Of a stretch of DNA of 64,000 nucleotides, positions 10,437 to 58,412 are shown in pieces. The DNA is from an uncultured Elusimicrobiaceae bacterium (GTDB taxonomy: Bacteria > Elusimicrobiota > Elusimicrobia > Elusimicrobiales > UBA9959). The notes beneath the pieces are model-generated. The model was not told where the DNA came from and searched no databases. It saw only the letters and a program-made list of their open reading frames with translations. The first letter of the stretch is position 1. Each line of letters opens with the position of its first letter. The stretch is taken from positions 52,405 to 116,404 of the forward strand of contig CAYQJX010000004.1 in NCBI GenBank assembly GCA_964417965.1, written 5' to 3'. A program made the translations under genes and the position numbers.

Positions 10437-11450
10437 TTACTTCTTCTTGACTATGTAGCCCTTGGAAATAGACGTGACCGCGTCGATTATGACCGCCTTC
10501 ACTTCCGAACCTTCGGCGCTGACCACCTCAGCCATGCCGGCGTACTGGATCTCAAGGCCGATCTTCTTGCCCGCCTTGTCGAGGGCGTCGGCGCCTTTCA
10601 TATACACGGCCAGGTAATCGCCGGCGGCGGCCAGGCCAGCTTTAGTCATGGAAATAGAGACCAGCTCCCCGCCCATGGTCAGGCTCTCTTCCATCGCGTC
10701 GCCTTTACCCTTCTCCTTGGCGGTTATTACGCCGTCCTCGCGCCAGGCGGAGGGAACGACGCTCACCCCGCCGGACCATTCTTTCTGGTGTTCGGGCATC
10801 TCTTCGGAAAGGTCCGAGAGAGCAAAACCTTTAAGGGTCTCGCCGACGGCCGGGGGCGGGACCTTGGCGCGCGCGCTCCTGGCCTGGGCCGGCGCGGGCG
10901 CGGGTTTTTCGGCTTCGACGGCCGCTTCTTCCGGCTGGGCCACGTCGGAGCTGGACAACTCGGCTTCCTTCGCCGTATCCACGCCGGTCACTTCCGCGGC
11001 CTTATGTTCGGGCCTGACCTCTTCCGTGATGTCGGGTATCACCAGCTCTTCCCTGGGATAGATCCTGTCAGGGTTCTCCACCGTGGACAGGTTGGCGTTG
11101 TAGATCTTGCCCCACTTGTAGGGGTCCTTGTAGTACCTGGTGGAAAGGTCCCACAGCGTGTCTCCGCCGTCCACCACGTGCTTTTTGCCTACGGAAAAAC
11201 CGGCGCCGGGCCCCGTGAGCTCTTTGACCGGTTCCAGGACGGCCGCTTCCTTCACCGGAGCGGTCCGCGCCGCCGGCTTTTTGGCCGGAGCCGTTTTAAC
11301 CGCGGACGAAGGCTTGGGCGGTTCTGGCGGCGCTTTTACCGCGGCTTTGGCCGCGGGCTCTTTAAGTTCCGTCTCCACCAGTTTCGCCTGCTGGGCGAAA
11401 AGCCCGGCCGGGAAGAGGCAAAGTACCGCTGTTAATATCGTTCTTTTCAT
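10437..11450 (-). CDS. LysM domain-containing secreted protein
   Basis: Signal peptide, a Pro/Ala/Lys-rich linker, and a LysM motif (HVVDGGDTLWDLSTRYYKDPYKWGKIYNAN...IYPREELVIP). Confidence 0.75.
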   Translation of the reverse strand: MKRTILTAVLCLFPAGLFAQQAKLVETELKEPAAKAAVKAPPEPPKPSSAVKTAPAKKPAARTAPVKEAAVLEPVKELTGPGAGFSVGKKHVVDGGDTLWDLSTRYYKDPYKWGKIYNANLSTVENPDRIYPREELVIPDITEEVRPEHKAAEVTGVDTAKEAELSSSDVAQPEEAAVEAEKPAPAPAQARSARAKVPPPAVGETLKGFALSDLSEEMPEHQKEWSGGVSVVPSAWREDGVITAKEKGKGDAMEESLTMGGELVSISMTKAGLAAAGDYLAVYMKGADALDKAGKKIGLEIQYAGMAEVVSAEGSEVKAVIIDAVTSISKGYIVKKK

Positions 11451-13032: not shown

Positions 13033-13068
13033 CCCGACAGCGTACTGTCGGGTTGCGGGCCGCGAATT

Positions 13069-14004
13069 TTATCTGACCAGGCGGCAGATGTCCCGGGCCC
13101 GGGCAGAGGCGCCCCCGGCCTTGGTGACGCGGGCCACGGCGCAGTCGCCGCCCTCGCCGCAATAGCGCTCTACTTCCACCCGGCCTATGTATTCTTCCCG
13201 GTGGCCGATGACCAGGTTGGAGCGGGGATCGCGGATCTCGGCGCCCTGGCGGTAGCAGTCCAGCTTCAGGCCCGGCTCCACGCCGGAATCCTGCCCGGCG
13301 TTCAGATAGAGTTCCTCGCCGGCCGCGTCGGCGACCATGCAGGACCAGGCTTTCTTGTTGAGCTGGCTGGAGATATTGGTGACGAACTGCACCAGCGCGG
13401 CGCGCAGGGCCTCCCCCTCGAGGGTTTCGTCGTAGCCGCCCTTGGTGCCCATGCCCAGGAACGAGGCCTTGGTGGACTTGGCCATGCCTTTGCCGGAGTC
13501 GGCCAGGATCACCTGGCCGCTAGCCACGTCGATAAGCCTCAGGTCCACGGTCACGTCGGCCACCTGGCGCTTGGACTGCGTCAGCAGGTAGTCGGACCCT
13601 TCTTTCTTGACCCCGAACTGCGAAACGGAGCCTACCACTATGGCCTCGAGGCCCAGCACCTGGCCGATCTTCACGGCGGTGGCCGAGTCTATCATGCCCT
13701 GGCCCTGGAACTTCTGCTCTTCCATGATCTTGCTCAGCCGGTCCCTTTCCACCACTATAAATTTGCCGGACTTCACCAGCTCGGTCACCAGGATGTCCGA
13801 GGCGGCGCCGCCGAGGCGGCCCTGCCCGTAGGCGGACTTGTTCTCGAACTCCACCACGCCCACCCGGCGCTTGGGGCCCGTCAGGTCGGATTTGACCTTC
13901 TCGGTCACGTCCACGCTTTGCGCCTGCTGGGTCTTTACCGTTTTGGAAGGCGCGCAGGCCGCTCCCAGGAAAAGAACCGCCACCAGAAAATTAGTTTTAC
14001 TCAT
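13069..14004 (-). CDS. CsgG-family outer-membrane lipoprotein (curli-type secretion channel homologue)
   Basis: Lipobox-like signal (LGAACAP). The CsgG core reads RRVGVVEFENKSAYGQ...ASDILVTELVKSGKFIVVERDRL..IMEEQ. A 4-nt overlap joins it to the upstream gene. Confidence 0.8.
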   Translation of the reverse strand: MSKTNFLVAVLFLGAACAPSKTVKTQQAQSVDVTEKVKSDLTGPKRRVGVVEFENKSAYGQGRLGGAASDILVTELVKSGKFIVVERDRLSKIMEEQKFQGQGMIDSATAVKIGQVLGLEAIVVGSVSQFGVKKEGSDYLLTQSKRQVADVTVDLRLIDVASGQVILADSGKGMAKSTKASFLGMGTKGGYDETLEGEALRAALVQFVTNISSQLNKKAWSCMVADAAGEELYLNAGQDSGVEPGLKLDCYRQGAEIRDPRSNLVIGHREEYIGRVEVERYCGEGGDCAVARVTKAGGASARARDICRLVR

Positions 14005-14642
14005 TTTGCCTCCTCGTTATTCAGCTGCCTGCGGGGCAGGCCGTCCAGGGCTTTCCAGGCCGCCGCCTCCGCTTCTTTCTTGAGCGGCGTCTTAAGCAGG
14101 TTCTGCACCAGTTTAAGCGCCAGCTGCTCCACGAAGGCCGCCTTGGCCTCGTCCTTGTCCGTGTAGAACTTCAGATCCTTGCCCGACCCGCTGGCCTCGT
14201 AGAGAACTTCTCCGCTGGCGGCCGAGAGCAGCCTCACGCTCAGGCCCACGTTCTTGCGCACCACGAAACCCAGGTTCTGGAAGGTGAAGTCTTCCACGTC
14301 CCCGTAGCACAGCAGGTCCGCTCCCAGCGCCTTGCCCAGTTCCTCCGGTTTTACGGAGGGCAGCTGCCCCCCCTCGGAGATGCCCAGGCCGGAAAGCTTG
14401 TTGTCCACCTCTTCGAAAGGCAGGGGCTGGTAGCCCCGCTTTGCGAACCCCTCCGCCGCCAGTTTACGCATGATGTCCGGAGCGCTCATGTCGGTACTCT
14501 GGTTGTCGAACGGCAGCACCGCCACCCGCGCGTCCGGCCAGGTCCGCAGCGCCGGCGCTACGGTCAGCACCGACTTGCCCGCGCAGCCGCAGGCCGAAGC
14601 CAGCAGGGCGGCGCAGACCAGGGTTCGCGCTTCAGGAGACAT
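14001..14642 (-). CDS. Lipoprotein resembling the DUF799/GNA1162 family (CsgG-associated)
   Basis: Cys-containing signal peptide (LLASACGCAG). The LPFDNQS...APDIMRKLAAEGFAKRGY pattern recalls DUF799 lipoproteins, which co-occur with CsgG-like genes. Both ends overlap neighbouring genes. Confidence 0.55.
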   Translation of the reverse strand: MSPEARTLVCAALLASACGCAGKSVLTVAPALRTWPDARVAVLPFDNQSTDMSAPDIMRKLAAEGFAKRGYQPLPFEEVDNKLSGLGISEGGQLPSVKPEELGKALGADLLCYGDVEDFTFQNLGFVVRKNVGLSVRLLSAASGEVLYEASGSGKDLKFYTDKDEAKAAFVEQLALKLVQNLLKTPLKKEAEAAAWKALDGLPRRQLNNEEAK

Positions 14643-15745
14643 CAGCGCGGCAGGGAGAAAATTATCTCCTGCGGGCCGGCGCCTTCCAGCTCCAGGCCGA
14701 AAGCGTCGCCGCGCAGCACGGCGCTGGCCAGCTCCTGCGCGTCCGAACTCTGGGGCACGGTGATGAAAACAGCCGTCCCGGCGGAATATTTTTCAAGGCT
14801 GATGCTTTTCAGGGCCACCCGCTGCAGCTGCGCCTTCAGCTTTTCCAGGGAGTCTAGGCCCTGGATGCCGAGGACCTTGAGCCGTATCACCGCATCGGGC
14901 TTAAGCATGCGGGCGGACCGGGCGGCGGCCTCCTGGCCCAGCAGCTCGCCGGCCGAGGCCAGGGCTTTGGAAAAAGAGACGGCCTCGGAAGAATCCACGG
15001 CGCTGGCCTGCATGGACAATTCCAGCAGGACCCGGCCGGTCGACACTTCGTAAACTGAAGCCGAAGCGTCGGCGCGGGACGGGTAAAAGCCCGTGTTCAT
15101 GCCGGAACCGGCCGCCGAGGCCGCGGCGGAGGCGTGGATCAGCAGGTCCGCCCCGGCGGCGGAGGCGGCGGCGAGCAGGGGTTCCACGGGGCCGGAGGCG
15201 AGCGCCCCGTCGGCGGCGAAAGGGAAATCCTTTATGACCGCGGCCGACCTGCGGGAGAAGGCGTCGCGGAAACCTTTGGCGAAGGGCTGCGACGGGGCGC
15301 CTTTCTGGGCGAAGGCCGCTATGGAACCGCCGGCCTGGCCGCCGGTCAGGTTAAGGACGCGCAGGGCCGAGGCCAGGCGGTCGTGATAGACCCAGACCTT
15401 GACGCCGGCGCGGTAAACCGCGCCGTCGGGGCCTTCCGACACCACCTTGTGCCTGGCCACGTACGCCTGCGGCGTTTTAAGGGGCCCGTTCTCCAGCGCG
15501 GCGTAATTCTCCGCCTTCGCGGCGTCGTCCATGTACAGCTCGGCGGCCCGCCTCACGGCGGAGCGCTGCGCGTCGAGCACCGCCCTGGAACGGGAGGCGC
15601 CCAGGTCGGACGGATTAAAATCGGCGGAGCCTTCGGCCAGGAGCACTTCCGGGTCGGCCTTGAAGGAACCGGGGGCCGGGGCCGTGGCGCAGGCGGCGGC
15701 CGCAGCCAGCAGGGCCGGCGCTAATAATTTCGCTAAAGTTCTCAT
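14642..15745 (-). CDS. Putative lipoprotein, N-terminal LPP20/FlgT-N-like region
   Basis: Signal peptide with Cys (LAAAAACAT). The N-terminal region LAEGSADFN...SRAVLDAQRSAVRRAAELY resembles LPP20-type domains (family recalled from memory, not searched). Its stop overlaps the next gene's start. Confidence 0.45.
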   Translation of the reverse strand: MRTLAKLLAPALLAAAAACATAPAPGSFKADPEVLLAEGSADFNPSDLGASRSRAVLDAQRSAVRRAAELYMDDAAKAENYAALENGPLKTPQAYVARHKVVSEGPDGAVYRAGVKVWVYHDRLASALRVLNLTGGQAGGSIAAFAQKGAPSQPFAKGFRDAFSRRSAAVIKDFPFAADGALASGPVEPLLAAASAAGADLLIHASAAASAAGSGMNTGFYPSRADASASVYEVSTGRVLLELSMQASAVDSSEAVSFSKALASAGELLGQEAAARSARMLKPDAVIRLKVLGIQGLDSLEKLKAQLQRVALKSISLEKYSAGTAVFITVPQSSDAQELASAVLRGDAFGLELEGAGPQEIIFSLPR

Positions 15746-15757
15746 GTAAGCCCCCTT

Positions 15758-17680
15758 CTATTTTTTCGCTACGGGCAGGGCGAAGCAGAACCTGGAGCCC
15801 TTGCCCACCTTGGACTCCACCCAGATCTTGCCGCCGTGTTTCTCCACCACGGACTTGGAGATCGCCAGCCCCAGGCCCGTGCCGGGCACCTGGTTGGCGC
15901 TGCTCCTGCCGCGGTAGAACTTCTCAAAAACCATCTTCTGTTCCTCCGGCGGGATGCCGGGGCCGTTGTCCTCCACGCAGATCACCACGGCCTCGCCTTT
16001 GTCCGTGCCGCTGACCGTGATGTTAGCGCCGGAGCCGGCGTACTTTATGGCGTTGATAATGAGGTTGTCTATCACCTGCGTCATCCACCTGGTGTCGGCC
16101 TGCACCTGGGGCAGGCCCTTGGCAGTGTTGGACAGGTTGACCTTGCTTTCCCTGGCCTTGAGCAGCATGGTGGAGACGGAACTGCGGATCAGCTCCGCGA
16201 GGTCCACTTTCTGGAACTCCAGCTCCACCTTGCCGTTGAGGCGCGACAGGTCCAGCAGGTTAGTGATCAGCTGGTTCAGGCGGTTGACCGACTGGTCGGT
16301 GACCGACAGGAAATTATGCTGCTGCTCGTTGAGGGGGCCGACCTCGCCGCTCAGGATCACGGAGACGAAGCCTTTGATCGTGGTGAGCGGGGTCTTTAGC
16401 TCGTGGCTGACGGTGGCGAGGAACTCGTCCTTGATCTTGTTGAGCTGGGCCAGTTCCTGCGCGGTCTTGGAAAGGTTGCCGTAGAGGGTCACCATCTCTA
16501 TGATGATGGCCAGTTCGTCGGCGATGATGGAGAGGAACTCCAGCTGGTCCGGGGTGAAAAAATCCTTGCGGCGGCTGCCCACGCGCATGACGCCGATGAT
16601 GCGGTCGTGCAGCGAGATCGGCACTATCATCAGGGAGTGGATCTCCCAGAGCTTGGCGTAGCGGGTCAGCACGTCCGGGTCGTTCTGGGCGTCGGGCGTG
16701 ATGAAAGGCTTGCGGGAAAGGAAGGTGCGCACGGAAGCGGAAGCGTGGTTGCTGAGCGGGATGCTGTAGAGCATGCGCTCTTCTTCGGGGATGCCGAAGG
16801 AGCCGGGGCTGACCACCAGCTCGCCTTTGGCCTCGTCGAACAGCAGGCAGGCCACCACGTCGGCCTCCACCATCTTGGCGACGATGTTCAGGATGGCGGC
16901 GCAGCCGCCCTGCGGGTCCTTTTCCGGGCCGGTCACCTTGGTGACCACCTCGTAGAGGGCCTTGCGCTCCTTGGCGCGCTGGATCAGCCGCGAGCCGGCC
17001 ACGTCCAGCTCCTTGACCACGGCGTTGACCTCTTCCTTGAGGTGGTCGGTCTCTTTCTTCAGCGCGAAGACCTTGTCGGAAACCTTGGAGATGGAGGTCA
17101 GCTGGGACGCCACGAAGCGCAGATACGGCTGGGCGGCGTCGAACATGGCGGGGGAGCCCGCGCCGAAGACTATCAGCCGCTCGGGGGCGCCGGCGGCGGG
17201 CCTGAAAGGGCACATCAGCACGGACCGGACCTCGAAGACGGAGAACAGCTCGGCCACGCCCTGGTAGTCCCCGGCCTTCACGTCGTCGAAGCGGAGCATT
17301 TCCCCCTCGGCGGAACTGCGGTCGAAAGCGCTCCACTTGTAGGAGGTCAGCAGCTTGGGCTCCACCTTGAAATGCTTCAGGTAGTTCACCAGGCGCCACT
17401 GGCCCTCGCCTTTTTCGAAGAGCAGCATGGAGCTGTCGGGGAAGGCTTTGTGGAACTTGATCAGGTAGTAATTGGTGATGTCGCCGTAATGCTCGGCCTG
17501 CTCCGGGGCGTAGGCGCGCTCCATGGTCTCGCGCGTGAAAGAGGTGAAATCCTGGAAAGCCTTGCGCGAGGAGCGCAGCGAACCTTCGGCCGGCAGCACG
17601 TGCCGGAATTTAAGGTACCAGTAGGCCCCGAAAGCGCCCGCGGCGCCTACGACGCCCGCTCCTATAAGTTCATTGAGCAT
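15758..17680 (-). CDS. Sensor histidine kinase with N-terminal TM helix and GAF domain
   Basis: H-box [17 protein letters not shown]. HATPase_c N/G boxes ([28 protein letters not shown]). A GAF-like region lies upstream. No adjacent response regulator. Confidence 0.85.
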
Positions 17681-17683
17681 CTT

Positions 17684-19507
17684 CTATACCAGGTCCATCA
17701 GCGTCTTGGCGTAGGCGGCCTTGGACTTCAGCCTGTCCTGCGGCAGCCACGCGCTCTTTATCAGGAAACTGTCGAGTATCTTGAAGGCGATGTGGCGGAA
17801 TTCCGCCTCCTGCGCGCCCAGCGCCGAGGTAGGCTGGGGGCCTATCACTATGGCCCCGTTCACGCCCTTCTCCGCCGCGTAGTTGCCGATCCGGAAAGGG
17901 ATGCCGTAAAGCTCGTCGGAGTTGTACTCCTCCGTGAAGACCTGGCACCACTCGGTGTTCATGCCGAGCTCCTTGACGCGCTCATGCAGCGAATAAAGGG
18001 CGAAATCCGCCTCGCGCTTCATGCCCTTGGGGTAGAACAGGCCCCACTTGAACCAGGAGTCCTTGGAGGAAGGCTGCCAGGAGGAGGCCTTGCCCAGGTC
18101 GTCCTCGCCGGGAGGGCCGCCGGCCGCGCTTTCGCCCACGCCCGTCAGCATGTCGATAAGCTGCGAGTGCGTGGAGTTGTTCATGGAGTTGACGATGAAC
18201 TTCTCCAGCTTCTTCATGGCTTCCAGCGTCTTGGTCACGTCGCCGAAAGGCACCAGGTTGGAGGCGAAGAAATTGTTCATCTCCTCGTCGGAAAGCTTTA
18301 CGTCTACGCCCTGCAGCAGCTGGGTGAGGATGGCCTTGTAGGCCTGGGCCGTGGGCGGCTTCAGGTCCACCATCCAGCCCTGGGTGAACTGGAAACCCAC
18401 CGCGTCCTCGAGCCCGGCCAGCGACTTCGGCGGGAAGACGGAAGTGACCACGACCTGCTTGTTCTGCGTGACGAAGTCGTTGAGCCACTTGGACAGGTAT
18501 TTCTTATTGGCCTCCGACACCATCAGCAGGTGCACGTCGTCGATGATGAGCACCTTCACCTTGCCCAGCAGCTCTTCCAGCTTGGCGATGGCGCCGTCCT
18601 TGACGGCCAGTTCTATCCCCTTGGAGAGCTTTATCCCGTCGGTGACGAAGATGTTGCTCTGCCCTATCGAGGCCGAGAGGCCGTAGGAGATGGAGTTCAC
18701 GAAATGCGTCTTGCCTGTGCCGGGGTTGCCGAACACCAGCAGCGGGTTATAGATGACTCCGGGGTTCTCCAGCACGGCCATCGCGGCCGCGTGGGCGAAC
18801 CGGTTGTGGGAACCGGCGATCAGGGTCTGGAAGCTGTAGGTCGGGATGAGCGGCAGCTCCATGGACCAGCGGGCCTTTATGCGCGAGGAGACGGACGGTC
18901 CGCCCGCCGGTGCGGCCGCGGCCGCCGCGGGCACAGGAGCGGGAGCCGGGGCCTGGGCGGGCTCTTCCCTCCTCATGCGGTTGGAGATGGACGGTACGCC
19001 CATGCCGGGCCTGCCGGCCTGGGGCTGCGCCGGCGCCGGCTGTTCGGCCGGTTTCGGGGCGGGAGCGGGAGCGGGCGCGGGGGCGGGCGCGGGGGCCGGC
19101 TTAGGCTGCTCTATGGGTTTGGGCGCAGGAGCAGGAGCGGGAGCGGGCTGTTGCACAGGGGCCGGTTTCGGCTGCTCCGCCGGTTTGGGGGCCGGTTCGG
19201 GCGCAAGCTTCAGCTTGGGCTTCGGCACGTCGAAAGGCGCCGGTTCCCCGAAAGCCTCCTCGGGCTCGGGGGCCGCGGTGCTGAGCTCGGAGGTGACGGC
19301 CTTCAGTTTCACCATCGTATCCATCTCCAGCTTGGAGAGGTAGATGATGAAGTCGAAATCGCCCGCGGTTTTTTCTGGACGCGAGCAGACGCTGCCCAGC
19401 TTCTTGACGATCAGGAAGATGTCTTTCATCTCCCCCTTGATCTGGAGCTTGTGGCGGCCGGGGTTCTTTTCGTTCGGGGCCGGGGCGACGTCCCACTTTT
19501 TTATCAT
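17684..19507 (-). CDS. DnaA/Hda-like AAA+ ATPase with Pro/Ala-rich linker and unknown N- and C-terminal domains (no DnaA domain IV)
   Basis: The region FQTLIAGSHNRFAHAAAMAVLENPGVIYNPLLVFGNPGTGKTHF...LIIDDVHLL...QVVVTSVFPP follows the DnaA domain III pattern. The start is taken at MIKKWDV (ATG 19505-19507). No HTH/domain IV is recognisable. Confidence 0.7.
   Translation of the reverse strand: MIKKWDVAPAPNEKNPGRHKLQIKGEMKDIFLIVKKLGSVCSRPEKTAGDFDFIIYLSKLEMDTMVKLKAVTSELSTAAPEPEEAFGEPAPFDVPKPKLKLAPEPAPKPAEQPKPAPVQQPAPAPAPAPKPIEQPKPAPAPAPAPAPAPAPKPAEQPAPAQPQAGRPGMGVPSISNRMRREEPAQAPAPAPVPAAAAAAPAGGPSVSSRIKARWSMELPLIPTYSFQTLIAGSHNRFAHAAAMAVLENPGVIYNPLLVFGNPGTGKTHFVNSISYGLSASIGQSNIFVTDGIKLSKGIELAVKDGAIAKLEELLGKVKVLIIDDVHLLMVSEANKKYLSKWLNDFVTQNKQVVVTSVFPPKSLAGLEDAVGFQFTQGWMVDLKPPTAQAYKAILTQLLQGVDVKLSDEEMNNFFASNLVPFGDVTKTLEAMKKLEKFIVNSMNNSTHSQLIDMLTGVGESAAGGPPGEDDLGKASSWQPSSKDSWFKWGLFYPKGMKREADFALYSLHERVKELGMNTEWCQVFTEEYNSDELYGIPFRIGNYAAEKGVNGAIVIGPQPTSALGAQEAEFRHIAFKILDSFLIKSAWLPQDRLKSKAAYAKTLMDLV
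19056..19148 (-). repeat. Imperfect hexanucleotide (GGNGCN)n tracts encoding (Pro-Ala)n
   Basis: The tracts ggggcgggagcgggagcgggcgcgggggcgggcgcgggggccgg and gggcgcaggagcaggagcgggagcgggc encode PAPAPAPAPAPAPAP and APAPAPAP inside the AAA+ gene. Confidence 0.6.
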
Positions 19508-19514
19508 AGTTGTA

Positions 19515-21536
19515 TTAGCGCAGTATAAGGTCCGACACCAGGTCCAGAGCGGCCGTGTGGTTGAAGCTGGACGAATCATAATGCCTGAAGAAGCCGCTGG
19601 CGCCGGAGAAAGTGTTCTCCATCTCGTAGACCTTCTCCTGCGGCACGGCGCCGACGCAGACCAGGCCGATGGCGCCGGTATCGGTCACCATCTGCAGCGC
19701 GACGTTGGCGTTCAGGTCGGCCTCGCATTCGCGCACCGAGGAGCGCTTTACGAACATCGGCTTGGAGGCGGACTTGAGGCAGATGGCGTCCAGTTCGGCC
19801 ATGACGGTGGCGCACAGGGCTTTATCCTCGGGAGCGTAAAGGAAGACCAGCCCCTTGACGCGCTCGGCGGGGATGCCCTCCGGGACGGGCCTTTCGGAAA
19901 GGCCGGCCAGGTCTCCCGCCTGCGAGCGGGAAGTTACGCCGGGGATCTGCCCGGCCTGGAAGATAACGGTTTTCTCTTCGTCCCCGGAAGACCCGGAGGG
20001 AGGAGCGATCACAAGCGTTTCGTCGCCGGACGGCTCCGGAACGGCGGCCGCCGGCTGGCCGGAGAACATGGCGCTGGCGGGTTCAAGCTCTATGCCCTGC
20101 GGCGCGGAAGGCCCGGCGGGCGCCTGGAACTGCTGCGTGCTGTCGCCCTGGCTGCCGACGGTAAGCTCCGCGCCCCCGTCCTGGAGGGCTGGCTCGGCCG
20201 GAGAGCCGAGGGAAATACCGGCGCCGGTCTCGATGGCCGGCTCGGCCGGAGCCTGCACCTGAAGGGTTTCCCCGGCCTGGTCAGGCTGGATACCGAGAGA
20301 AAGTTCCTCTATACCGGGAATGGAGGGCTCGACCGCAGGCTGCGCCTGCAGGGTCTCCACAGCCTGGTCGGGCTGGGCTCCGAGAGAGATTTCCTCTGCG
20401 CCGGCTATAGCCGGTTCCGGCTGCTGGGGTTCGGCCTGCAAGGCTTCCGGAGCCGGCTCCAGACGGAGCGTCTCGCCGGCGTCCTGGGCCGGGGCGGTCT
20501 CCCCGGTGGACGGTTCTATGGTAAAGGCTTCAAAGCCGGTGGGTTCAGGGGTCGCCGGCTCTATGATAAAAGCCTCGGGACCGGCCGCCGGCGCCTGCTG
20601 CGCCTCGGCCTGGAGAGGAATCTCTTCTTTCTTTTCTTCTTCCTGATCGTTGTTCTGCACGATATCCCCCTGCTGCGGCGCTGCCGCTTTAAGCTGTTTT
20701 TCAAATTCCGCGAGTTCGTCTCCGGTGGGCACCGGTTCGCCAGGGTCCGCCGCCGGAGCCAGCGAAGCCTGCGCCAGGGGCGCCTCCGCCTGTTCCGTCT
20801 CCGGGGCTGCCGAAGGCTGTCCTGATTCGGAAAGCTGCAGAAGGGCGTCTATATCCGGGATGCCGAAATCCCTGGTGGTGTCATACTGCCTGGAAGAAGG
20901 CTCTCCCTCCGGCAGGCCGAGCGGGGCCAATTTTATGGGGTCGGCCGATTCGGCCGGGAGGCCGGAAAAAAACGACTCGGGACCGGGCTTCTGCGTCTCG
21001 GCCTCCGGAACGAATTCCTGGCTTAGTTCCTCGGCGGGGGTAAACCCGGCCGGAGCCGGAGCTTCCTCCGGCTGCGGGACGGCGGGGCTTTCGGCAGGGG
21101 GCTGTTGGTTGTTTTGCTCGGCCCCGGCCCCGAACATGAAGTCCCCGAGGCTCTGCAGCTCCATTTTTTCCGCCGCGGGGGGAGCGGGCTGCTCTTCGGC
21201 TTTAGCCTCCGGGGAGGCGGCGCCTTCGGGAAGGCCGGAGAAGGACTGCAGCACTACGGTCTTTTCAGCGTCGAAATTTTGGGCGGCGGGTTCGGGAGCG
21301 GGTGAGCCTTCCTGCAGACCGGAAAAAGGCGGCAGGACTACGGTCTTATCCGCGTCAGCGGAAGGAGGCGGGAGCTTGACCTCGTCCCTGGCCGGCTCGG
21401 GCGCGCGTTCCGCCGGCTGCGGTTCGGGCATCTTTATGCCGTCAAGGATGGACGGCATCTTGTTGAGCAGGCCGTTGAGGTCCGAGAGGATGTCGTCTAT
21501 TGATTCTTTTTTCTTTTTTCCGTCTCTGCTGTCCAT
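19515..21536 (-). CDS. Acidic Pro/Glu/Ala-rich repeat protein (predicted largely disordered) with structured C-terminal domain
   Basis: 673 aa. N-terminal amphipathic segment ESIDDILSDLNGLLNKM, several internal peptide repeats, and a C-terminal region of about 115 aa with normal composition. It lies 7 nt upstream of the AAA+ gene. Confidence 0.6.
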   Translation of the reverse strand: MDSRDGKKKKESIDDILSDLNGLLNKMPSILDGIKMPEPQPAERAPEPARDEVKLPPPSADADKTVVLPPFSGLQEGSPAPEPAAQNFDAEKTVVLQSFSGLPEGAASPEAKAEEQPAPPAAEKMELQSLGDFMFGAGAEQNNQQPPAESPAVPQPEEAPAPAGFTPAEELSQEFVPEAETQKPGPESFFSGLPAESADPIKLAPLGLPEGEPSSRQYDTTRDFGIPDIDALLQLSESGQPSAAPETEQAEAPLAQASLAPAADPGEPVPTGDELAEFEKQLKAAAPQQGDIVQNNDQEEEKKEEIPLQAEAQQAPAAGPEAFIIEPATPEPTGFEAFTIEPSTGETAPAQDAGETLRLEPAPEALQAEPQQPEPAIAGAEEISLGAQPDQAVETLQAQPAVEPSIPGIEELSLGIQPDQAGETLQVQAPAEPAIETGAGISLGSPAEPALQDGGAELTVGSQGDSTQQFQAPAGPSAPQGIELEPASAMFSGQPAAAVPEPSGDETLVIAPPSGSSGDEEKTVIFQAGQIPGVTSRSQAGDLAGLSERPVPEGIPAERVKGLVFLYAPEDKALCATVMAELDAICLKSASKPMFVKRSSVRECEADLNANVALQMVTDTGAIGLVCVGAVPQEKVYEMENTFSGASGFFRHYDSSSFNHTAALDLVSDLILR
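20181..20399 (-). repeat. Tandem coding repeat, 87-bp (29-aa) period
   Basis: Two and a half copies: AEEISLGAQPDQAVETLQAQPAVEP / IEELSLGIQPDQAGETLQVQAPAEP / GAGISLGSPAEPALQDGG. DNA copies are visible at about 20279-20310 and 20366-20397. Confidence 0.7.
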
Positions 21537-24351: not shown

Positions 24352-24771
24352 ATGCACAAGATATTAGTGGTAGACGACGAAAAGTCGATCCTGGAGATGC
24401 TCAAGTATTGCCTTGAGCACGAAGGCTATATGGTGCTGACGGCCGAGACCGGCGAGATGGCACAGAACTGGATAAAAGAGGTCAAGCTGGACCTGGCCAT
24501 AGTGGACCTGGGCCTCCCGGACATCAGCGGGCTGCAGGTCTGCGAATTTCTCAAGGAAGACCCCAAGACCCGCGCCACGCCGATAATAATCCTCACCGGC
24601 AACACCACTAACGACGCCAGGATAAAAGGCAACTGCTGCGCCAACGCGGAGCTGTTCCTGAACAAGCCGATAGAGATAGAAGACCTGCGCAAGGCCGTGG
24701 CTTCGATCCTGGAAAAATCAGAGAAGAAGAAACTGCTGCTGAGGAATTCTTTCAAGGCGCGGCTGGATTGA
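24352..24771 (+). CDS. Stand-alone response-regulator receiver (CheY-like)
   Basis: ILVVDDE, phospho-acceptor context DLAIVDLGLPDISG, ILTG and NKP. There is no output domain. GC content is visibly lower than in the surroundings. Confidence 0.85.
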   Translation: MHKILVVDDEKSILEMLKYCLEHEGYMVLTAETGEMAQNWIKEVKLDLAIVDLGLPDISGLQVCEFLKEDPKTRATPIIILTGNTTNDARIKGNCCANAELFLNKPIEIEDLRKAVASILEKSEKKKLLLRNSFKARLD

Positions 24772-35307: not shown

Positions 35308-35604
35308 TTAAGAGACCTTTACCGAGATCCTGGCCAGGTACTTGTCCAGGTCGTCGGCGGGGCGCGGTATCACGTGCATCCCGCACAGCTCCCCGACCTT
35401 CTGGGCGGCGGCGGCGCCGGCTTCCACGGCGGCGCGCACGGCGCCGACTTCGCCCACGCACAGCGTGGTCACGTAGCCGGAGCCTATCTTCTCGTAGCCG
35501 AGCAGGCGCACCTTGGCGGCCTTGCTCATGGCGTCAGAGGCTTCGATCATACCGATGAAACCCTTAGTCTCTATCATTCCCAGCGCTTCTTTCGGTTCGG
35601 ACAT
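35308..35604 (-). CDS. BMC-H shell protein (PduA/EutM/CcmK family, Pfam00936)
   Basis: [57 protein letters not shown]...HVIPRP. Confidence 0.9.
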
Positions 35605-35627
35605 AGTAGCTCCTTGTTATCGCTAAA

Positions 35628-36608
35628 TTAGTACTGCCCTTTGGCGGCCTCGCCGCCGGAAACTATGGCTATGCTGGCGCTCGTGCCGAGGCGCGTGGCG
35701 CCGGCCTTGATCATGGCCGCGGCCACTTCGGCGTTCTTGATGCCGCCGGAGGCCTTCACGCCCATCTCGGGGCCCACGGTCTCGCGCATCAGGGCGATGT
35801 CCTCGGGAGTGGCGCCTCCGGAGCCGAAGCCGGTGGAGGTCTTCACGAAGTCGGCCTGCGCGGCTTTTGACATTTTGCAGGCGCGGATCTTCTCGTCCTT
35901 GGTAAGATAGGAAGTCTCCAGGATCACCTTGAGCGTTTTGCCGCGCGTGGCGTCGCGCACCGCTTTTATGTCGTCCTGCACCAGCTGGTCGTTGCCGCTC
36001 TTGAGCGCGCCGATATTGATGACCATGTCTATCTCGTCGGCGCCGTTGGCTATGGCGTCACGGGCCTCTATGGCCTTCACGGTCGGGGTCGTAGAGCCAA
36101 GCGGGAAACCGATGACGGTGCAGACCATCACATTGGAGCCGCGCAGCAGGCGGGACGACAGCGCCACGTAGCCGGGGTTAACGCAGACGGAGGCGAAGCG
36201 GTACTTGCGGGCCTCCTCGCAGAGCTTGCCGATCTCTTCCTGCGTGGCGTTGGCCTTGAGCAGGGTATGGTCGATCATGCCGGCGATGGAAGAGCTGGAT
36301 TCGTTGGGGTTGCAGAAAGTCACGCGGTCGGCGGTAGCCTTTATCTGCTGCGGGGTGTATTTATTGAGCGGGTTGCAGCTCTGGCAGGAGGAGGAGCAGG
36401 TGTTCTCTTCGAGCCGGCAATCGCCCTGGCCGGAGCAGGCCTTCTTCTCGGCGGCGCCGGGCTTGTTGACCAGCGGGTGCTGGAACACCTTGCCGGACGA
36501 GCCTATGCTCACATTGTCGCCGAGGGTCTGCCTCGGGGCGGGAGACCCGCCGGCCTTCATGATCCTGGCCACCTCGGCCGCGATTTTCTTTATATCTTCG
36601 TCGTTCAT
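35628..36608 (-). CDS. deoC: Deoxyribose-phosphate aldolase (DERA/DeoC) with ~105-aa N-terminal extension
   Basis: The DERA core begins at [15 protein letters not shown] and includes FASVCVNP and the Schiff-base region DFVKTSTGF. The N-terminal extension carries an EP-like helix and a Cys cluster. Confidence 0.85.
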
Positions 36609-36609
36609 A

Positions 36610-36888
36610 TTAGCCTCGCTTGTCGATGTGAACTTTATCCACTATGCCGGCTACCACGGTGCGCACCGGCGCCTTGGAGTTCTTTAAAATTTTCCGGGCG
36701 GAACCGCCCTCGTCCACTATCAGCACGGTGTCGCCCACGCCCGCGCCCTGGTTGTCTATCACCAGCTGGGCCTCGCCCGCGAACTCGCCGTCGGCGCCCA
36801 GCGGCCTGGCCAGCAGCATGGTGGCGTTCTTCAGCCCCGGGTGCCGGCGCGTTGCCCAGACGTTTCCAATGACTTTAGCTACGAACAT
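36610..36888 (-). CDS. BMC-P vertex protein (EutN/CcmL/PduN family, Pfam03319)
   Basis: [30 protein letters not shown]...[23 protein letters not shown]...[12 protein letters not shown]. Confidence 0.9.
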
Positions 36889-36892
36889 AAAA

Positions 36893-37189
36893 TTAGTTGA
36901 ACTTCTTCCCGTCTATTATTCCCACTATCGCAGCGTCCACCGGCGGCGGGGCCGCCTTCACGGCGGTTTCCCCTTCCCAGCCTTCGAAAGCCAGGATGGC
37001 CTCGCGCGAGGCGACGAAGAAAACCGTTTCCCCCGCCCCGGCGCCTACGGTGTCGCCGGCTACCAGCGGGTCGCCCGACGGCTTGTCGGTCTCCCAGTCG
37101 AGCGGCTGTATCAAAAGCAGGGTCTTCGACTCCATGCCGCAGCACTGGCGGGAGCAGAAAACCCTTCCTATGACCTTGGCCTGTTTCAT
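36893..37189 (-). CDS. BMC-P vertex protein paralogue (divergent, with insertion)
   Basis: MKQAKVIGRVFCSRQCCGMESKTLLLIQPLD...VAGDTVGAGAGETVFFVAS...VDAAIVGIIDG. It has an extra FEGWEGETAVKAAPPP segment. Confidence 0.85.
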   Translation of the reverse strand: MKQAKVIGRVFCSRQCCGMESKTLLLIQPLDWETDKPSGDPLVAGDTVGAGAGETVFFVASREAILAFEGWEGETAVKAAPPPVDAAIVGIIDGKKFN

Positions 37190-37190
37190 T

Positions 37191-37637
37191 TCAATAGCAC
37201 TTCTGTTCTATCGCGGTGATCTTGTCGAGGCGCTTCTGGTACTTGCCGCCTTCGAAAGGGGTATTGAGCCAGACCTTGATCATCTCCTCGAGGGCCAGCT
37301 CGCCGTGCGTCTTGCCGCCGAGGCAGAGCACGTTGCAGTCCTCGTGCGCCGCGGCGAAGCGGGCCGAGATGGTGTCATAGGCGGCCACGGCGCGGATGCC
37401 GTGCACCTTGTTGGCGGCCAGCGGCATGGCCCCGTTGAAGCCGTCCACCAGCACGGCCTTGTCGAATTCCTTGCGGCGCACGGCCTCGCTGACGAGCAGG
37501 GCGATGTCCGGGAAATCCACCGGCTCCACGGAGTAACAGCCAAAGTCGGTAACGTCGTGGCCGAGCTTCTGCAGGAACTTCTTAAGCCGCTCCTTAGCCT
37601 CGAAACCAGCGTGATCCGCGCCTATGACGATCCTCAT
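37191..37637 (-). CDS. rpiB: Ribose-5-phosphate isomerase B (RpiB/LacAB family)
   Basis: MRIVIGADHAGFEAKE...GCYS...VDFPD...NKVHGIRAA...HEDCNVLCLGG. Confidence 0.9.
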   Translation of the reverse strand: MRIVIGADHAGFEAKERLKKFLQKLGHDVTDFGCYSVEPVDFPDIALLVSEAVRRKEFDKAVLVDGFNGAMPLAANKVHGIRAVAAYDTISARFAAAHEDCNVLCLGGKTHGELALEEMIKVWLNTPFEGGKYQKRLDKITAIEQKCY

Positions 37638-37647
37638 AAATTCTCTC

Positions 37648-38196
37648 CTATATGGCCGCGCCGAGATGTTCGTGCGCGTTGGGTATCACTATGCGGCTCA
37701 CTACCGCGTCCTCGCCTATGGCCTTAACGCCGGCGGCCACCGCGGTGCGCACGGCGCCGGGCTCGCCCACGACGGTGAAGTAGCCTTTGCCGCCAATGCC
37801 CTTGCCGGTGTTCACTTCGGCCACGTGCACGAAGGCGGCCTTGGCGGCCGCGTCGGCCGCGAACAGCGCCGGCAGGGCCTCCTTGGTCTCCACTATGCCC
37901 ACGGCCTCTATGCTGGCGGGCTTAACTTTCTTGTTGAGCGCGGCCAGCGCGCCGGCGTGGACGTTGCGGATGATGTGGCGCGCTATGAGCGTGTTGCCCG
38001 CTATCTCGGCGCCTTTGGCCAGCGAGGATTCCACCTCGCCGACGGGGCCGGAGAGCACTATTATGTATTTCCCCTTGGAGATCGCCTGGTGCACCTCGGG
38101 CTTTACGCCCGCGGCCTTGCACATGGCGTCCAGCGTCTCTATGCCCTTGGCTATCGAGGAAAGTTCCATCAAACCTATGGCAATGTTGGCCTGCAT
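37648..38196 (-). CDS. BMC-T shell protein (tandem Pfam00936, PduT-like; Ser at the PduT Cys38 position)
   Basis: Two BMC domains, IAIGLMELSSIAKGIETLDAM... and IEAVGIVETKEALPALFAADAAAKAA.... The start is taken at MQANIAIG. The ISKGKY motif stands where PduT has ICPGKF. Confidence 0.85.
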   Translation of the reverse strand: MQANIAIGLMELSSIAKGIETLDAMCKAAGVKPEVHQAISKGKYIIVLSGPVGEVESSLAKGAEIAGNTLIARHIIRNVHAGALAALNKKVKPASIEAVGIVETKEALPALFAADAAAKAAFVHVAEVNTGKGIGGKGYFTVVGEPGAVRTAVAAGVKAIGEDAVVSRIVIPNAHEHLGAAI

Positions 38197-38207
38197 ATAA
38201 ATTCTCC

Positions 38208-39620
38208 TTAAGCTATCCTGAGGTCGCCGACTACGCTGCACTGCAGCGGGCGCACGAAATGGCTGGTCTTGGTGATGCCGTCTCCCGTCGGGGTGCCGAT
38301 GGACATGGAGGCGTAGCCCTCGCCGAGGCCGAGGCCGTGCAGCGTGCAGCCGTTCTTGACGAAGATGGAGCAGGCCATGCGGCGGCCCATCTTGGTCATG
38401 TTCCTGATATTGGTGGAATACATCCCGGCCGAGTGGTGGTTCTCCCCCTCGGCGAAACGCGCCAGTTCTATGGCCGCGTCCACGTCCCTGGCTACCGTGA
38501 CCGGCAGCACCGGCATCAGCTGCTCGCTGACCACGAAGGGGTGGTCGTTCGGGACTTCCGCCCAGAGCACCCGGATCTCGTCGGACAGGGTCAGGCCGAT
38601 GGCCTTGGCGATAACGGACGGGTTCTTGCCGATGAAAGAGCGGTTCACCTTGGGCTCGCGGCCGGGTTCCAGTATTGCCAGCTTGGTCAGCTGGTCCATC
38701 TGGGGGCCGGTCAGCTCATAGGCGCGGGCGTCGGAGCGCATGGCTTCCAGGAAGCGGGAGCGCGCGGCCTCGGTCACTATCACTTCCTTCTCGGCGATGC
38801 AGAGCACGTTGTTGTCGAAGCCGCAGCCGTAAATTATTTCCTTCGCGCAATCCGGGAAGACCGCGGTCTCGTCCACCACTATCGGCGGGTTGCCGGGCCC
38901 GGCGGCTATGGTCTTGCAGGGCTTGCCGGAGGTCATGGCCACTTTTACTATGGCCGGGCCGCCGGTGACTATGTTCATATGGGTGTTCGGATGGGACAGC
39001 AGCTGCTTGGTGGCTTCCTGGGTCGGGTTGGCTATGGTGGTGACCAGGTTGGCCGGGCCGCCGGCGGCGACGATGGCGGAATTGAGGACGCGCACGGCGT
39101 CGGCCACACAGCCCTTGGCGGCGGGATGAGGAGAGAAGACGACGGCGTTGCCGGCGGCGAGGATGCCGATGGCGTTAGAGATGATGGTGGCCACGGCGTT
39201 AGTAGACGGCGTAATGGCCGCCACCACGCCGAAAGGGGCGTATTCCACCAGGGTAAGGCCCTTGTCGCCGGTATAGGACACGGCGCGCAGGTCTTCCACG
39301 CCCGGGGTCCCGTCGATGCAGACCATGTTCTTGAGGACCTTGTCCTCCACCCGGCCCATGCCGGTCTCGGCCACGGCCAGCTCGGCCCAGCGGCGGGCGT
39401 TGGCGCGGGAGACTTCGCGCATGGCGGCTATGATCTTTTCGCGCGCCACCAGGCCCAGGTCCTGGAAGCCGGGCTGCGCGGCGTTGGCGGCGGCTACCGC
39501 CTGGTCGACGGTGTCGAACACGGGGCCGCCGGCGGCGGCCGGGGACGGGGCGTCCGCGGCGCCGAGGCTGCGCACCACCTCGGTCACTATCTTTTTAAGG
39601 TCTTCTTCGCTTATGGGCAT
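38208..39620 (-). CDS. CoA-acylating aldehyde dehydrogenase (PduP/EutE-like) with N-terminal encapsulation peptide
   Basis: ALDH fold with catalytic-Cys context FDNNVLCIAEKE. The N-terminus MPISEEDLKKIVTEVVRSL is followed by an Ala/Pro/Gly linker. Confidence 0.85.
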   Translation of the reverse strand: MPISEEDLKKIVTEVVRSLGAADAPSPAAAGGPVFDTVDQAVAAANAAQPGFQDLGLVAREKIIAAMREVSRANARRWAELAVAETGMGRVEDKVLKNMVCIDGTPGVEDLRAVSYTGDKGLTLVEYAPFGVVAAITPSTNAVATIISNAIGILAAGNAVVFSPHPAAKGCVADAVRVLNSAIVAAGGPANLVTTIANPTQEATKQLLSHPNTHMNIVTGGPAIVKVAMTSGKPCKTIAAGPGNPPIVVDETAVFPDCAKEIIYGCGFDNNVLCIAEKEVIVTEAARSRFLEAMRSDARAYELTGPQMDQLTKLAILEPGREPKVNRSFIGKNPSVIAKAIGLTLSDEIRVLWAEVPNDHPFVVSEQLMPVLPVTVARDVDAAIELARFAEGENHHSAGMYSTNIRNMTKMGRRMACSIFVKNGCTLHGLGLGEGYASMSIGTPTGDGITKTSHFVRPLQCSVVGDLRIA

Positions 39621-39628
39621 AAGAGAGA

Positions 39629-39937
39629 CTAATCCTGGAATTTGTCGGCCGACTTCTTGAACACCACCTTGCCGTCCTTCTCTATGGTGTCGACTATCGC
39701 GAAGACGGTGCAGTCCACCGGCGTATTCTCGGTCTTTGAAGTCTGGCGGGCGCTGGAGCCCTGCACCAGCAGCACCAGTTCCCCGGTGCCGGCGCCCACG
39801 GCGTCTATAGCGACGAGCGTATTGCCGCGCGGCTTATCATCCAGGCCCACCGGCTGCACCATCAGCAGCTTGGTGCCGACGAGCTTGTCGTCCTTGCGGG
39901 TACAGACCACGTTGCCCACTACTCGTGCGAATAGCAT
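39629..39937 (-). CDS. BMC-P vertex protein (third paralogue)
   Basis: MLFARVVGNVVCTRKDDKLVGTKLLMVQPV...VAIDAVGAGTGELVLLVQGSSAR...DCTVFAIVD. Confidence 0.9.
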   Translation of the reverse strand: MLFARVVGNVVCTRKDDKLVGTKLLMVQPVGLDDKPRGNTLVAIDAVGAGTGELVLLVQGSSARQTSKTENTPVDCTVFAIVDTIEKDGKVVFKKSADKFQD

Positions 39938-39957
39938 GAATCCTCCGTCAGGGAATG

Positions 39958-39985
39958 GGCGCGGGGGCTTGAAGCCCCCTGCGCC
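39958..39985 (-). other. GC-rich intercistronic hairpin between BMC-H and BMC-P genes
   Basis: On the minus strand ggcgcagggggc-ttcaa-gcccccgcgcc gives 5+6 bp with one bulged A. No U tract follows. It is followed by a GGAGG Shine-Dalgarno and the BMC-P ATG. Confidence 0.45.
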
Positions 39986-39998
39986 GCGTTAAGCCCTT

Positions 39999-40283
39999 TT
40001 ACTTCTTTTTGGCTTCGCTTATCGGCAGTTTGCCTTCCAGGTCGCCGTGAGGCTGCGGGATCACGTGCACGCTCACCAGCTCGCCCACTTTCTGGGCGGC
40101 GGCGGCGCCGGAGTCGCAGGCGGCGCGGCAGGCGGCCACTTCGCCGCGGAAAAGGATGGTCACGAGGCCGGAGCCGATCTTTTCGTAGCCGACTATCTTC
40201 ACGTTGGCGGCTTTCACCGCGGCGTCGGCCGCTTCCACACAGGCCACGAGGCCCTTGGTTTCTATCATTCCGAGTGCGTCCAT
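39999..40283 (-). CDS. BMC-H shell protein (PduA/EutM family)
   Basis: [59 protein letters not shown]...HVIPQP. Confidence 0.9.
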
Positions 40284-40319
40284 ATTCCCTCCAGTGTAAC
40301 TAGACTAAAATACCGAAAA

Positions 40320-40952
40320 TCAGACTATGTAGGCCGGGTCGCAGTTCTTCAGGCCGGCGGCGTTGGCCTCTTCCACGTCCAGGTGCAGCTCCAGCGAGTA
40401 GGCGTCGGAGACGCGGCACAGCACCCGCTCGTAAATGGTCTCCCGGTCGGTGCCCCGGCCGCAGAGCACGCGCACTTCCTGGCCGTCGCGCACCTTGTAA
40501 GCCGCGCCTTCCTTCACGTTGAAATGGATATGCCGCTTGGACAGGATCAAGCCCTGCGGAATCGTGACGGAGCCTTTAGGCCCGACCAGTTTTACGCCCG
40601 GGGAATTGGCCAGCTTGCCGGAGTCGCGGATAGGCGGTTCCACGCCGAGGCGGCGCGCGTCGCCCAGCGACACCTCCACCTGGCTGTACTTCCGGTACGG
40701 CCCTATCATCCGGACGTCCTTGAGGGCGCCTTTGGGGCCCTCCACCGTCACCCGCTCGTTGCAGGCGTACTGGCCCGGCTGCTTTACCGGCTTGAGCTGC
40801 GTGTCGTCGCAGTCGGTCCCGAAGAGGGTCTTAAAATCTTCCTTCGTCAGGTGCACGTGCCGGTTGGAGACGCCTACGGGGATGGGCAGGGCAGAACGCT
40901 CCTGCCTGAGCTGCAGGTCCTGGAGTATTTCGCCGAGTAGCTTTTCGTTCAT
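40320..40952 (-). CDS. pduL: Phosphate acyltransferase PduL (PTAC) with EP-like N-terminus
   Basis: IPVGVSNRHVHLTKEDF..., a second half KRHIHFNVKEG, and GPYRKYSQVEVSLGDARRLG. N-terminal helix MNEKLLGEILQDLQL. Confidence 0.85.
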   Translation of the reverse strand: MNEKLLGEILQDLQLRQERSALPIPVGVSNRHVHLTKEDFKTLFGTDCDDTQLKPVKQPGQYACNERVTVEGPKGALKDVRMIGPYRKYSQVEVSLGDARRLGVEPPIRDSGKLANSPGVKLVGPKGSVTIPQGLILSKRHIHFNVKEGAAYKVRDGQEVRVLCGRGTDRETIYERVLCRVSDAYSLELHLDVEEANAAGLKNCDPAYIV

Positions 40953-40961
40953 TTTAATTTT

Positions 40962-41741: not shown

Positions 41742-41788
41742 TTTCGGGTCTCCTTATAATTAATCAAAAAGATTATACAAATAATGGG

Positions 41789-58401: not shown

Positions 58402-58412
58402 CAGGGGGCAAT

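Follow-up and report, generated by a model that had tools for sequence, protein, structure and literature searches.

FlgT, FlgP and FlgO form lipid-tethered concentric rings, the H-ring, beneath the outer membrane and make no pore (bioRxiv 10.64898/2025.12.02.691832). The SHS2 fold is common to FlgP, Lpp20 and FlgT_N, the presence of an insert separating the helix from the second strand correlates with the ability to form rings, and the FlgP basal disk forms through an SHS2 domain carrying this insert (PMC12222027). One alpha/beta domain is likewise common to LptE, PelC, CsgG and PqiC, with pore segments found only in CsgG, and PelC forms a dodecameric periplasmic ring, which is lipid-anchored, has no membrane-spanning segments and docks onto a porin (PMC13631591). 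Here we describe three adjacent genes, called A, B and C, in a 64,000-nucleotide stretch of the genome of an uncultured Elusimicrobiaceae bacterium (GenBank assembly GCA_964417965.1, contig CAYQJX010000004.1, positions 52,405 to 116,404; hereafter the window, in whose own numbering coordinates are given). To judge from sequence comparisons and predicted structures, their products combine building blocks of the same kinds: an SHS2 domain in the N-terminal part of A, an alpha/beta domain of the LptE/PelC/GNA1162/CsgG type in the middle of A, in B and in the N-terminal part of C, and a beta domain of the FlgT_C/TsaP type at the C-terminal end of C. Because domains of these kinds form lipid-tethered rings beneath the outer membrane in solved systems, we tentatively read A, B and C as the components of a periplasmic ring or scaffold anchored to the outer membrane, a reading to which we give a little less than an even chance.

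In the explanation we propose, the three proteins would be made together and exported as lipoproteins, their N-terminal lipids would probably anchor them to the inner face of the outer membrane, and the anchored proteins would assemble into a periplasmic oligomeric ring or scaffold. C would take part as a lipid-tethered FlgT-like subunit rather than as a CsgG-type 36-strand peptide pore, and the complex would either brace the envelope or provide some other envelope machine with a periplasmic collar or vestibule. The analysis shows the gene structure, the lipoboxes, the domain families, the fold similarities and the co-conservation; outer-membrane targeting, a physical complex, its ring shape, the absence of a pore and the cellular role are what we infer for the trio.

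All three genes lie on the minus strand and overlap as an earlier, sequence-only note on this DNA had described:

14642..15745, minus strand: gene A, encoding a 367-residue lipoprotein, placed by its open reading frame and ribosome-binding site
15689..15691, minus strand: codon of the lipobox cysteine Cys19 of A (LAAAAAC-AT), invariant in 28 homologues
14001..14642, minus strand: gene B, encoding a 213-residue lipoprotein, GNA1162-like (DUF799) and PelC-like, placed by PF05643, Protein Data Bank (PDB) matches and its junction
14583..14585, minus strand: codon of the lipobox cysteine Cys20 of B (SACGC-AG), the cysteine column being conserved in 15 B homologues
13069..14004, minus strand: gene C, encoding a 311-residue lipoprotein with a CsgG-family alpha/beta domain and a cysteine-containing beta domain
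13954..13956, minus strand: codon of the lipobox cysteine Cys17 of C (LGAAC-AP), invariant in 32 homologues

The reading frames and junction sequences agree with those overlaps. At the A/B junction (TGATG) the stop codon of A shares one nucleotide with the start of B at 14642, and at the B/C junction (ATGA) the frames overlap by four nucleotides at 14001-14004. Each protein begins with a hydrophobic signal sequence that terminates in its lipobox cysteine, so the cysteine-containing signal peptides of the earlier note hold for all three. With at least 80 homologues found for A and 475 for C, these are real genes and not chance open reading frames. Source names of the homologues place the window in Elusimicrobiota, and the presence of an LptE gene at 58398-59006 indicates that the cell is diderm. 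Pfam and NCBIfam scans covered the 17 genes around the trio and a further set of proteins from the window, most of them secreted or membrane proteins, rather than every small open reading frame; curli families (CsgA/B/E/F) appeared neither in these, nor in the gene map, nor in the related loci examined, in line with the earlier note, and flagellar genes (flgH, flgI, motX, motY, flgO, flgP) were likewise missing from all three.

The product of gene C can be divided as follows:

13342..13875, minus strand: CsgG-family domain of C, residues 44-221, with a 10-residue constriction-loop deletion and near-invariant, shortened, charged hairpins FGVKKEGSDYLLTQSKRQ and KGMAKSTKASFLGMGTKGGYDETLEG
13072..13341, minus strand: predicted FlgT_C/TsaP-like C-terminal beta domain of C, residues 222-311, based on its strand pattern, superposition on FlgT and weak TsaP matches

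The CsgG-family label given to C earlier stood (Pfam PF03783, expectation value (E) 6.7e-31, 107.7 bits, cut-off 20.8, model positions 8-203 of 210, residues 44-221), and weaker Pfam matches were seen to LpoB (E 7.3e-9, 36.1 bits against a cut-off of 22.3, overlapping the stronger CsgG match), TolB_N and FlgT_M. What is not supported is the description of C as a CsgG-like channel. To compare it with a known pore, C and eight deep Elusimicrobia homologues were aligned to Escherichia coli CsgG (sequence checked against PDB 3x2r), whose reference features are the constriction loop with stacked Y51, N55 and F56, the amphipathic transmembrane beta-hairpins TM1 (134-154) and TM2 (184-204) that make up a 36-strand barrel, and nonameric assembly in the outer membrane. 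The core of the constriction loop falls in a 10-residue gap in C and in all eight homologues. The equivalents of TM1 and TM2 are 6 and about 8 residues shorter and have fewer aromatic residues; charged residues make up 6/18 and 7/25 of the two hairpins, and the invariant polar or charged positions among them, for example D138, K145 and Q147, are unlike what lipid-facing strands should show. Against the curli CsgG equivalog NF011731, C scored 16.7 bits where the cut-off is 505. Polar hairpins may be general to the DUF799-associated CsgG-like subfamily: the Yersinia member has the C hairpin motifs FG.K..G and G.G...YD.TL.G, and its hairpins are polar too.

The predicted structure points in the same direction. 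In the AlphaFold2 model of C (mean per-residue confidence, pLDDT, 71) one long hairpin is built, the segment of the second is disordered, and a C-terminal beta domain is added; residues 1-42 have a pLDDT below 50, and a disordered linker of about 26 residues is predicted behind the lipid anchor. Foldseek matched this model best to FlgT of the Vibrio LPHT ring (8z5n_0; E 8.7e-16, template-modelling (TM) score 0.67, root-mean-square deviation 3.7 Å, 284 columns) over the middle and C-terminal domains, with a TM score of 0.61 to the FlgT crystal structure 3w1e and of about 0.36 to CsgG. C thus resembles CsgG (4uv3, 3x2r) in Pfam family, lipobox and core alpha/beta domain, and differs from it in having no constriction loop, short charged hairpins, an extra C-terminal domain and no csgA/B/E/F genes among the scanned window proteins. 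Based on these comparisons and the model, C is by sequence a member of the CsgG family, yet it probably does not function as a pore of the CsgG type. In most deep lineages the protein retains two cysteines, Cys222 and Cys307.

The most serious alternative, in line with the channel reading of the earlier note, is one that we nevertheless consider unlikely: C would be a CsgG-type oligomeric outer-membrane pore for a substrate other than curli, and the lipoproteins A and B would assist or gate it from the periplasm, in a loose parallel to CsgE and CsgF. Nearly the whole Pfam CsgG model is matched, the C profile matches CsgG structures at 2e-6, the protein has both the lipobox and one long protruding hairpin, and Proteobacteria too pair CsgG-like genes with DUF799 partners, suggesting a dedicated system. 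Moreover, the CsgG relative HfaB has been linked to secretion of holdfast-anchor proteins in Caulobacter. Such a pore would, however, lack its constriction loop and have short hairpins with invariant charges on both faces, the second of them not even predicted, in a protein that falls far below the curli equivalog and whose fold is far nearer FlgT than CsgG. In addition, no candidate secreted substrate is found in the operon, the repeat and AAA+ proteins encoded upstream having no signal peptide by eye (no predictor was run), and the CsgG-like homologues of Natroniella and of a metagenome contig (L025; L numbers denote the related loci compared) are without the hairpin extensions and still retain the A-like partner.

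FlgT (Vibrio H-ring; 3w1e, 8z5n) was the top structural match for A as well as for C. The following domains can be assigned to A:

15353..15658, minus strand: predicted N-terminal SHS2/FlgT_N-like domain of A (LPP20-FlgP-FlgT_N type), about residues 30-131, beta-alpha-(insert)-beta-beta-alpha, aligning with the FlgT_N part of the Natroniella homologue and with FlgP
14900..15328, minus strand: predicted middle alpha/beta domain of A (LptE/PelC/CsgG/LpoB type), about residues 140-282, with the invariant loop GxGxNTGFYPS
14651..14893, minus strand: predicted C-terminal ferredoxin (HMA)-like domain of A, about residues 285-365, beta-alpha-beta-beta-alpha-beta by DSSP of the model, with weak HMA-type family-profile matches

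The label LPP20/FlgT-N that the earlier note had attached to A fared less evenly. A has no Pfam or NCBIfam match of its own, including none to Pfam LPP20 or FlgT_N, so the direct assignment fails; the relationship returns by way of distant relatives, the family profile and the predicted fold. An exhaustive profile search gave 1940 relatives, 336 of them below 1e-10, and among 62 distant relatives 24 had a FlgT_N match and three an LPP20 match. Residues 22-140 of A align with the Natroniella homologue (E 2e-19) over its above-threshold FlgT_N domain, the A-family profile matches FlgP of Campylobacter jejuni (9hmf_C, 2.2e-8) and Vibrio cholerae (9yec, 4e-3), and weaker profile matches extend to LpoB, PelC and FlgO in the middle part and to HMA domains at the C-terminal end. 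The AlphaFold2 model (pLDDT 84) has three domains and matched FlgT 3w1e first among PDB structures (E 1.4e-10), with a TM score of just 0.31 because the domain arrangement differs; the next matches of the middle domain were the CsgG pre-pore, PelC, LptE and GNA1162. The evidence relating A to FlgT_N and LPP20 (FlgP) is therefore indirect yet consistent. The helix-to-second-strand insert of its predicted SHS2 domain is comparable in length to the ring-forming hairpin of FlgP, but is predicted to be helical in the window protein. Clustering of the A family did not separate orthologues from paralogues, window A being about equidistant from all deep groups. A and C themselves are not claimed as sequence paralogues, since a profile-profile comparison gave a probability of 2% and just a 19-residue hairpin motif.

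Gene B is more straightforward. The DUF799 label is borne out by a match to Pfam GNA1162-like PF05643, formerly DUF799 (E 3.1e-10, 40.3 bits, cut-off 25.9), and among PDB sequences B matches Neisseria GNA1162 (4hrv, E 9e-5) and, marginally, PelC (9h80, E 0.02). The trio resembles PelC (5t10, 9h80) in the PelC/LptE-type fold of B and of the middle domains of A and C, but its cluster is unlike the Pel exopolysaccharide exporter in that PelC similarity in sequence goes no further than that marginal match and neither a pelB-like porin nor polysaccharide synthesis genes are present. As lipoproteins, FlgP and FlgO are like the trio, and the rings they form are pore-free and tethered under the outer membrane. 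FlgT itself is a single chain of N, M and C domains that is not described as lipidated (bioRxiv 10.64898/2025.12.02.691832); in the trio two lipidated proteins share the corresponding domains between them, the C-terminal domain of A is ferredoxin-like, C lacks the N domain, and the FlgT_M match is below threshold.

In the window the trio forms part of a minus-strand gene run in the order MiaB-like, a 317-residue protein, a 673-residue acidic repeat protein, DnaA-like AAA+, GAF kinase, A, B, C, ComM, LysM protein, DprA and TopA. In close relatives (L001/L002 and L005/L006) synteny extends over the entire 15 kb between MiaB-like and TopA, so adjacency of the trio in those genomes says little, and neither does the 12-nucleotide gap to the kinase gene by itself. 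Deep-lineage loci were found with an 11-sequence alignment of distant A relatives (a 39-sequence alignment had no conserved stretch); A is only about 20-25% identical in them, and their flanking genes bear no relation to the window's. In 14 of the deep Elusimicrobiota loci the sequence reached far enough downstream: A-B-C was found in the same order in 10, A-C in two and A alone in two, which upholds co-conservation of the trio. A CsgG-family gene adjoins an A-family gene in 17 of the 23 independent informative loci, and outside the phylum Natroniella (L024) and the unassigned metagenome contig L025 have the order CsgG-like, A-like, LPP20-like, TPR/LpoB-like. Because gene order is kept in deep lineages with different flanks and the pairing recurs outside the phylum, these genomic comparisons mark the trio, and most of all the pair of A and C, as a functional unit. 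Within it, C is the more strongly conserved: its identity is 66-96% across the listed Elusimicrobia homologues, and E is about 1e-105 even to lineages where A scores just about 1e-15. The contrast suggests that C provides the core of the assembly, with A as an adaptor that evolves faster.

Several variations on this arrangement were seen. A small lipoprotein of 145-170 residues is encoded directly upstream of A in L009 (3606-4073), L014 (248-688) and L017 (9411-9848), with equivalents in L012, L015, L016, L018, L019 and L022; it matched LPP20 at E 0.005-0.009, below threshold, in L009, L014 and L017, the scanned L016 equivalent had no such match, and the gene is absent from the window. L016 is Candidatus Obscuribacterium magneticum, a magnetotactic member of the Elusimicrobiota, in which the trio is present and preceded by this 170-residue gene (no Pfam match). 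Behind C, L009 and L022 have a second GNA1162-like paralogue and a 194-residue lipoprotein, and L016, L017 and L019 have a gene for a 440-residue DUF7379/alpha-beta-hydrolase-like protein. In L024 (6463-7797) and L025 (6352-7797) the CsgG-like partner has an ordinary, non-lipoprotein signal peptide and a C-terminal extension of about 150-200 residues that is rich in glycine and aromatic residues, ends in phenylalanine and has no Pfam match. By its sequence pattern, this extension resembles a small beta-barrel of the outer membrane, which could stand in for the lipid anchor. Finally, the assembly GCA_021811405.1 holds two versions of the block, L005 with B and C and L004 without them, each with its own TopA, DprA and ComM. 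A block duplication was considered and set aside; since both copies carry these three genes, a mixed bin of two related strains is the simpler account.

The nearest described gene arrangement is the CsgG-like/DUF4810/DUF799 operon of Proteobacteria, and we read the trio as a variant of such operons. The earlier note had held that CsgG-like genes with DUF799 partners are widespread and have no defined substrate, and the Yersinia operon (L032; CsgG-like, DUF4810, GNA1162) is an example of the pairing: as in the trio, genes for a GNA1162-like protein and a short CsgG-family lipoprotein are adjacent in a cluster of three lipoproteins, and there are no curli genes. Adjacent CsgG-family and DUF799 genes occur in the window, in 10 deep Elusimicrobia loci, and in L001 and L005. 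The two arrangements differ in gene order (A-B-C in Elusimicrobia, CsgG-DUF4810-DUF799 in Yersinia) and in their third member. Pfam found DUF4810 (PF16068) in the Yersinia operon but not in A or its neighbours, and the Elusimicrobia trio has the 367-residue three-domain FlgT_N-type lipoprotein in its place. C further differs from the Yersinia CsgG-like protein in its extra FlgT_C/TsaP-like beta domain of about 90 residues and in an even shorter constriction-loop region. Further GNA1162 contexts were uninformative, the Neisseria gonorrhoeae gene lying at a contig edge, a Pantoea-type gene on a 1-kb contig, and the Avibacterium upstream region being interrupted by a transposase remnant. Our search of the literature for DUF799, DUF4810, PF05643 and CsgG-like/DUF799 operons found no functional study, and the Elusimicrobia genome paper says nothing about motility or envelope structures of Elusimicrobia themselves.

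Since FlgT surrounds the LP-ring and TsaP the secretin PilQ, the trio could also be an accessory collar round a secretin, of the type IV pilus or type II-like kind, acting with the TsaP-like LysM protein encoded two genes downstream of C; we regard this as very unlikely. That protein (10437-11450, minus strand, between ComM and DprA) has its best PDB matches to TsaP, a peptidoglycan-binding protein forming a ring round the type IV pilus secretin (3jc8, 9.9e-9; 6ve2, 2.7e-7), mainly over the LysM region, with weak similarity at the C-terminal end. The beta domain of C, which itself has no LysM domain, weakly resembles the TsaP beta domains, a PilC/GspF-like fragment is seen by eye at the window end, and a PilB-type ATPase gene follows the block in L005. 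On the other side, the similarity of C to TsaP is below significance (E 0.079 and 0.36 for the C profile, compared with 2e-6 for CsgG structures), LysM-DprA-TopA is a housekeeping neighbourhood whose synteny holds in close relatives but which the deep lineages with the trio have lost, and in no locus was a secretin gene seen beside the trio.

We hold it equally improbable that C, alone or together with A and B, acts in the manner of LpoB, the PBP1B activator, as an outer-membrane lipoprotein extending to the peptidoglycan layer and regulating a peptidoglycan synthase or hydrolase. The above-threshold Pfam LpoB match, the disordered linker predicted behind the lipid anchor of C, its housekeeping-level conservation and the weak LpoB match of the A-profile middle domain speak for this reading, but the LpoB equivalog TIGR02722 gives 33.2 bits against a cut-off of 110.55, the Pfam match is covered by the much stronger one to CsgG (both domains share a TolB_N-like fold), and none of the loci examined has a linked penicillin-binding protein gene. 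That the genes encode three functionally unrelated lipoproteins, neighbours through inherited gene order only, is barely credible: the 15-kb synteny in close relatives and the one lineage with A but not B and C would fit, but the order is kept where all flanks differ, the A-like/CsgG-like pair recurs in another phylum and the reading frames overlap.

Several observations weigh against the ring or scaffold that we favour. Complex formation and ring shape are deduced from homology and gene order. C is firmly a Pfam CsgG protein, with FlgT_M remaining sub-threshold (17.9 bits against a cut-off of 31.2); it keeps one long protruding beta-hairpin (strands 121-135 and 146-159) that could join a barrel of unusual chemistry; its contrast with CsgG in hydrophobicity is modest in the first strands; and its model is of medium confidence, low precisely at the hairpin tips. 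The C-terminal domain of A is not FlgT_C-like, and the A and C profiles have no significant sequence relationship. With no flagellar genes among the scanned window proteins, the analogy to FlgT is architectural only. Finally, A occurs without B and C in some lineages, namely L003/L004, where ComM directly follows A, and L026-L028; A may thus have a role of its own.

Directly upstream of the trio lies a kinase gene:

15758..17680, minus strand: GAF histidine-kinase gene (Pfam GAF, HisKA, HATPase_c), ending 12 nucleotides before A

The stop codon of the kinase gene (15760-15758) and the start of A at 15745 enclose a 12-nucleotide gap containing AAGGGGG, and the scan found no promoter-like or terminator-like site at this junction; along the run it gave no clear operon boundaries, its consensus being one that may not apply to this phylum. 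From this arrangement, the kinase gene is probably co-transcribed with the trio, and its product is a possible regulator of the trio, taken here as context only. The earlier note had taken the short gap to suggest a functional link of the trio to the kinase, AAA+ and repeat-protein genes. Part of this survived. A GAF kinase gene stands upstream of the trio, either immediately or at a distance of no more than about 1.5 kb, in the window relatives L001 and L005 and in five deep lineages (adjacent in L011, separated by one or two small genes in L009, L012 and L022, and also upstream in L023). It is absent upstream of the trio in L016-L019, however, and the gap itself says little. In L026-L028, loci in which kinase, B and C are all absent, A follows the DnaA-like AAA+ gene, so the upstream link concerns A more than the CsgG-like gene. 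Co-regulation is a plausible form of the link, with conserved gene order in the phylum as a confounder.

The DnaA-like AAA+ protein (17684-19579, minus strand) has orthologues in L026 (5164-7503), L027 (1727-4420) and L028 (4639-7986), and its gene is conserved across Elusimicrobia, usually directly upstream of A or the kinase gene. The orthologues, of 557-1115 residues, have a conserved N-terminal domain, a variable proline-rich low-complexity linker and a conserved C-terminal region. They begin at the position that corresponds to Met25 (MIKKWDV...), which probably puts the true start at 19507 and does away with an apparent 65-nucleotide overlap with the next gene. That gene (19515-21536, minus strand) encodes the 673-residue acidic, Pro/Ala/Glu-rich repeat protein, with a conserved C-terminal part, no Pfam match and, by eye, no signal peptide; it lies upstream of the AAA+ gene in relatives too, with a weak match in L011. 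Near the head of the gene run, 24352-24771 (plus strand) encodes a stand-alone response-regulator receiver protein, a candidate partner of the GAF kinase; a similar gene is present in L003 and L006.

CsgG-family genes are routinely labelled as curli secretion channels, and several C homologues carry the annotation "curli secretion channel" in their source records. The C subfamily is large and highly conserved, appears to be without pore-defining features and looks FlgT-like, so such annotations are probably wrong for the whole phylum. Recurrence of the adjacent domain set in a second phylum points to a widespread envelope module, and A, B and C are concrete targets for cryo-tomography and for genetics in the cultivable Elusimicrobium. 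The trio may also bear on the origin of accessory rings in complex flagellar motors. A bolder version of the ring reading, a long shot in our estimation, is that the trio is the core of an undescribed non-flagellar ring under the outer membrane, common to Elusimicrobiota and modified in other diderm phyla, for example in Halanaerobiales; its SHS2, CsgG/LptE-type and FlgT_C-type modules would later have been used in the flagellar H-ring and basal disk, and in Elusimicrobia it would be wired to the GAF kinase and the unusual DnaA-like AAA+ protein.

Two further features of the window were recorded. The 36-nucleotide spacer between the stop codon of C and the start of ComM contains a perfect 8-bp inverted repeat at 13037-13056 (CCCGACAG-TACG-CTGTCGGG) with no T-run, which may be a transcript-processing or attenuation element. 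At 35308-42337 (minus strand) lies a bacterial microcompartment locus, recognized by eye in the translations and with the help of Pfam labels of related loci, with shell proteins, an RpiB-type sugar-phosphate isomerase, an aldehyde dehydrogenase-like gene and a triose-phosphate isomerase. In other Elusimicrobia (L012, L022, L026 and L028) a microcompartment locus of the same kind immediately precedes the kinase or AAA+ gene upstream of A.

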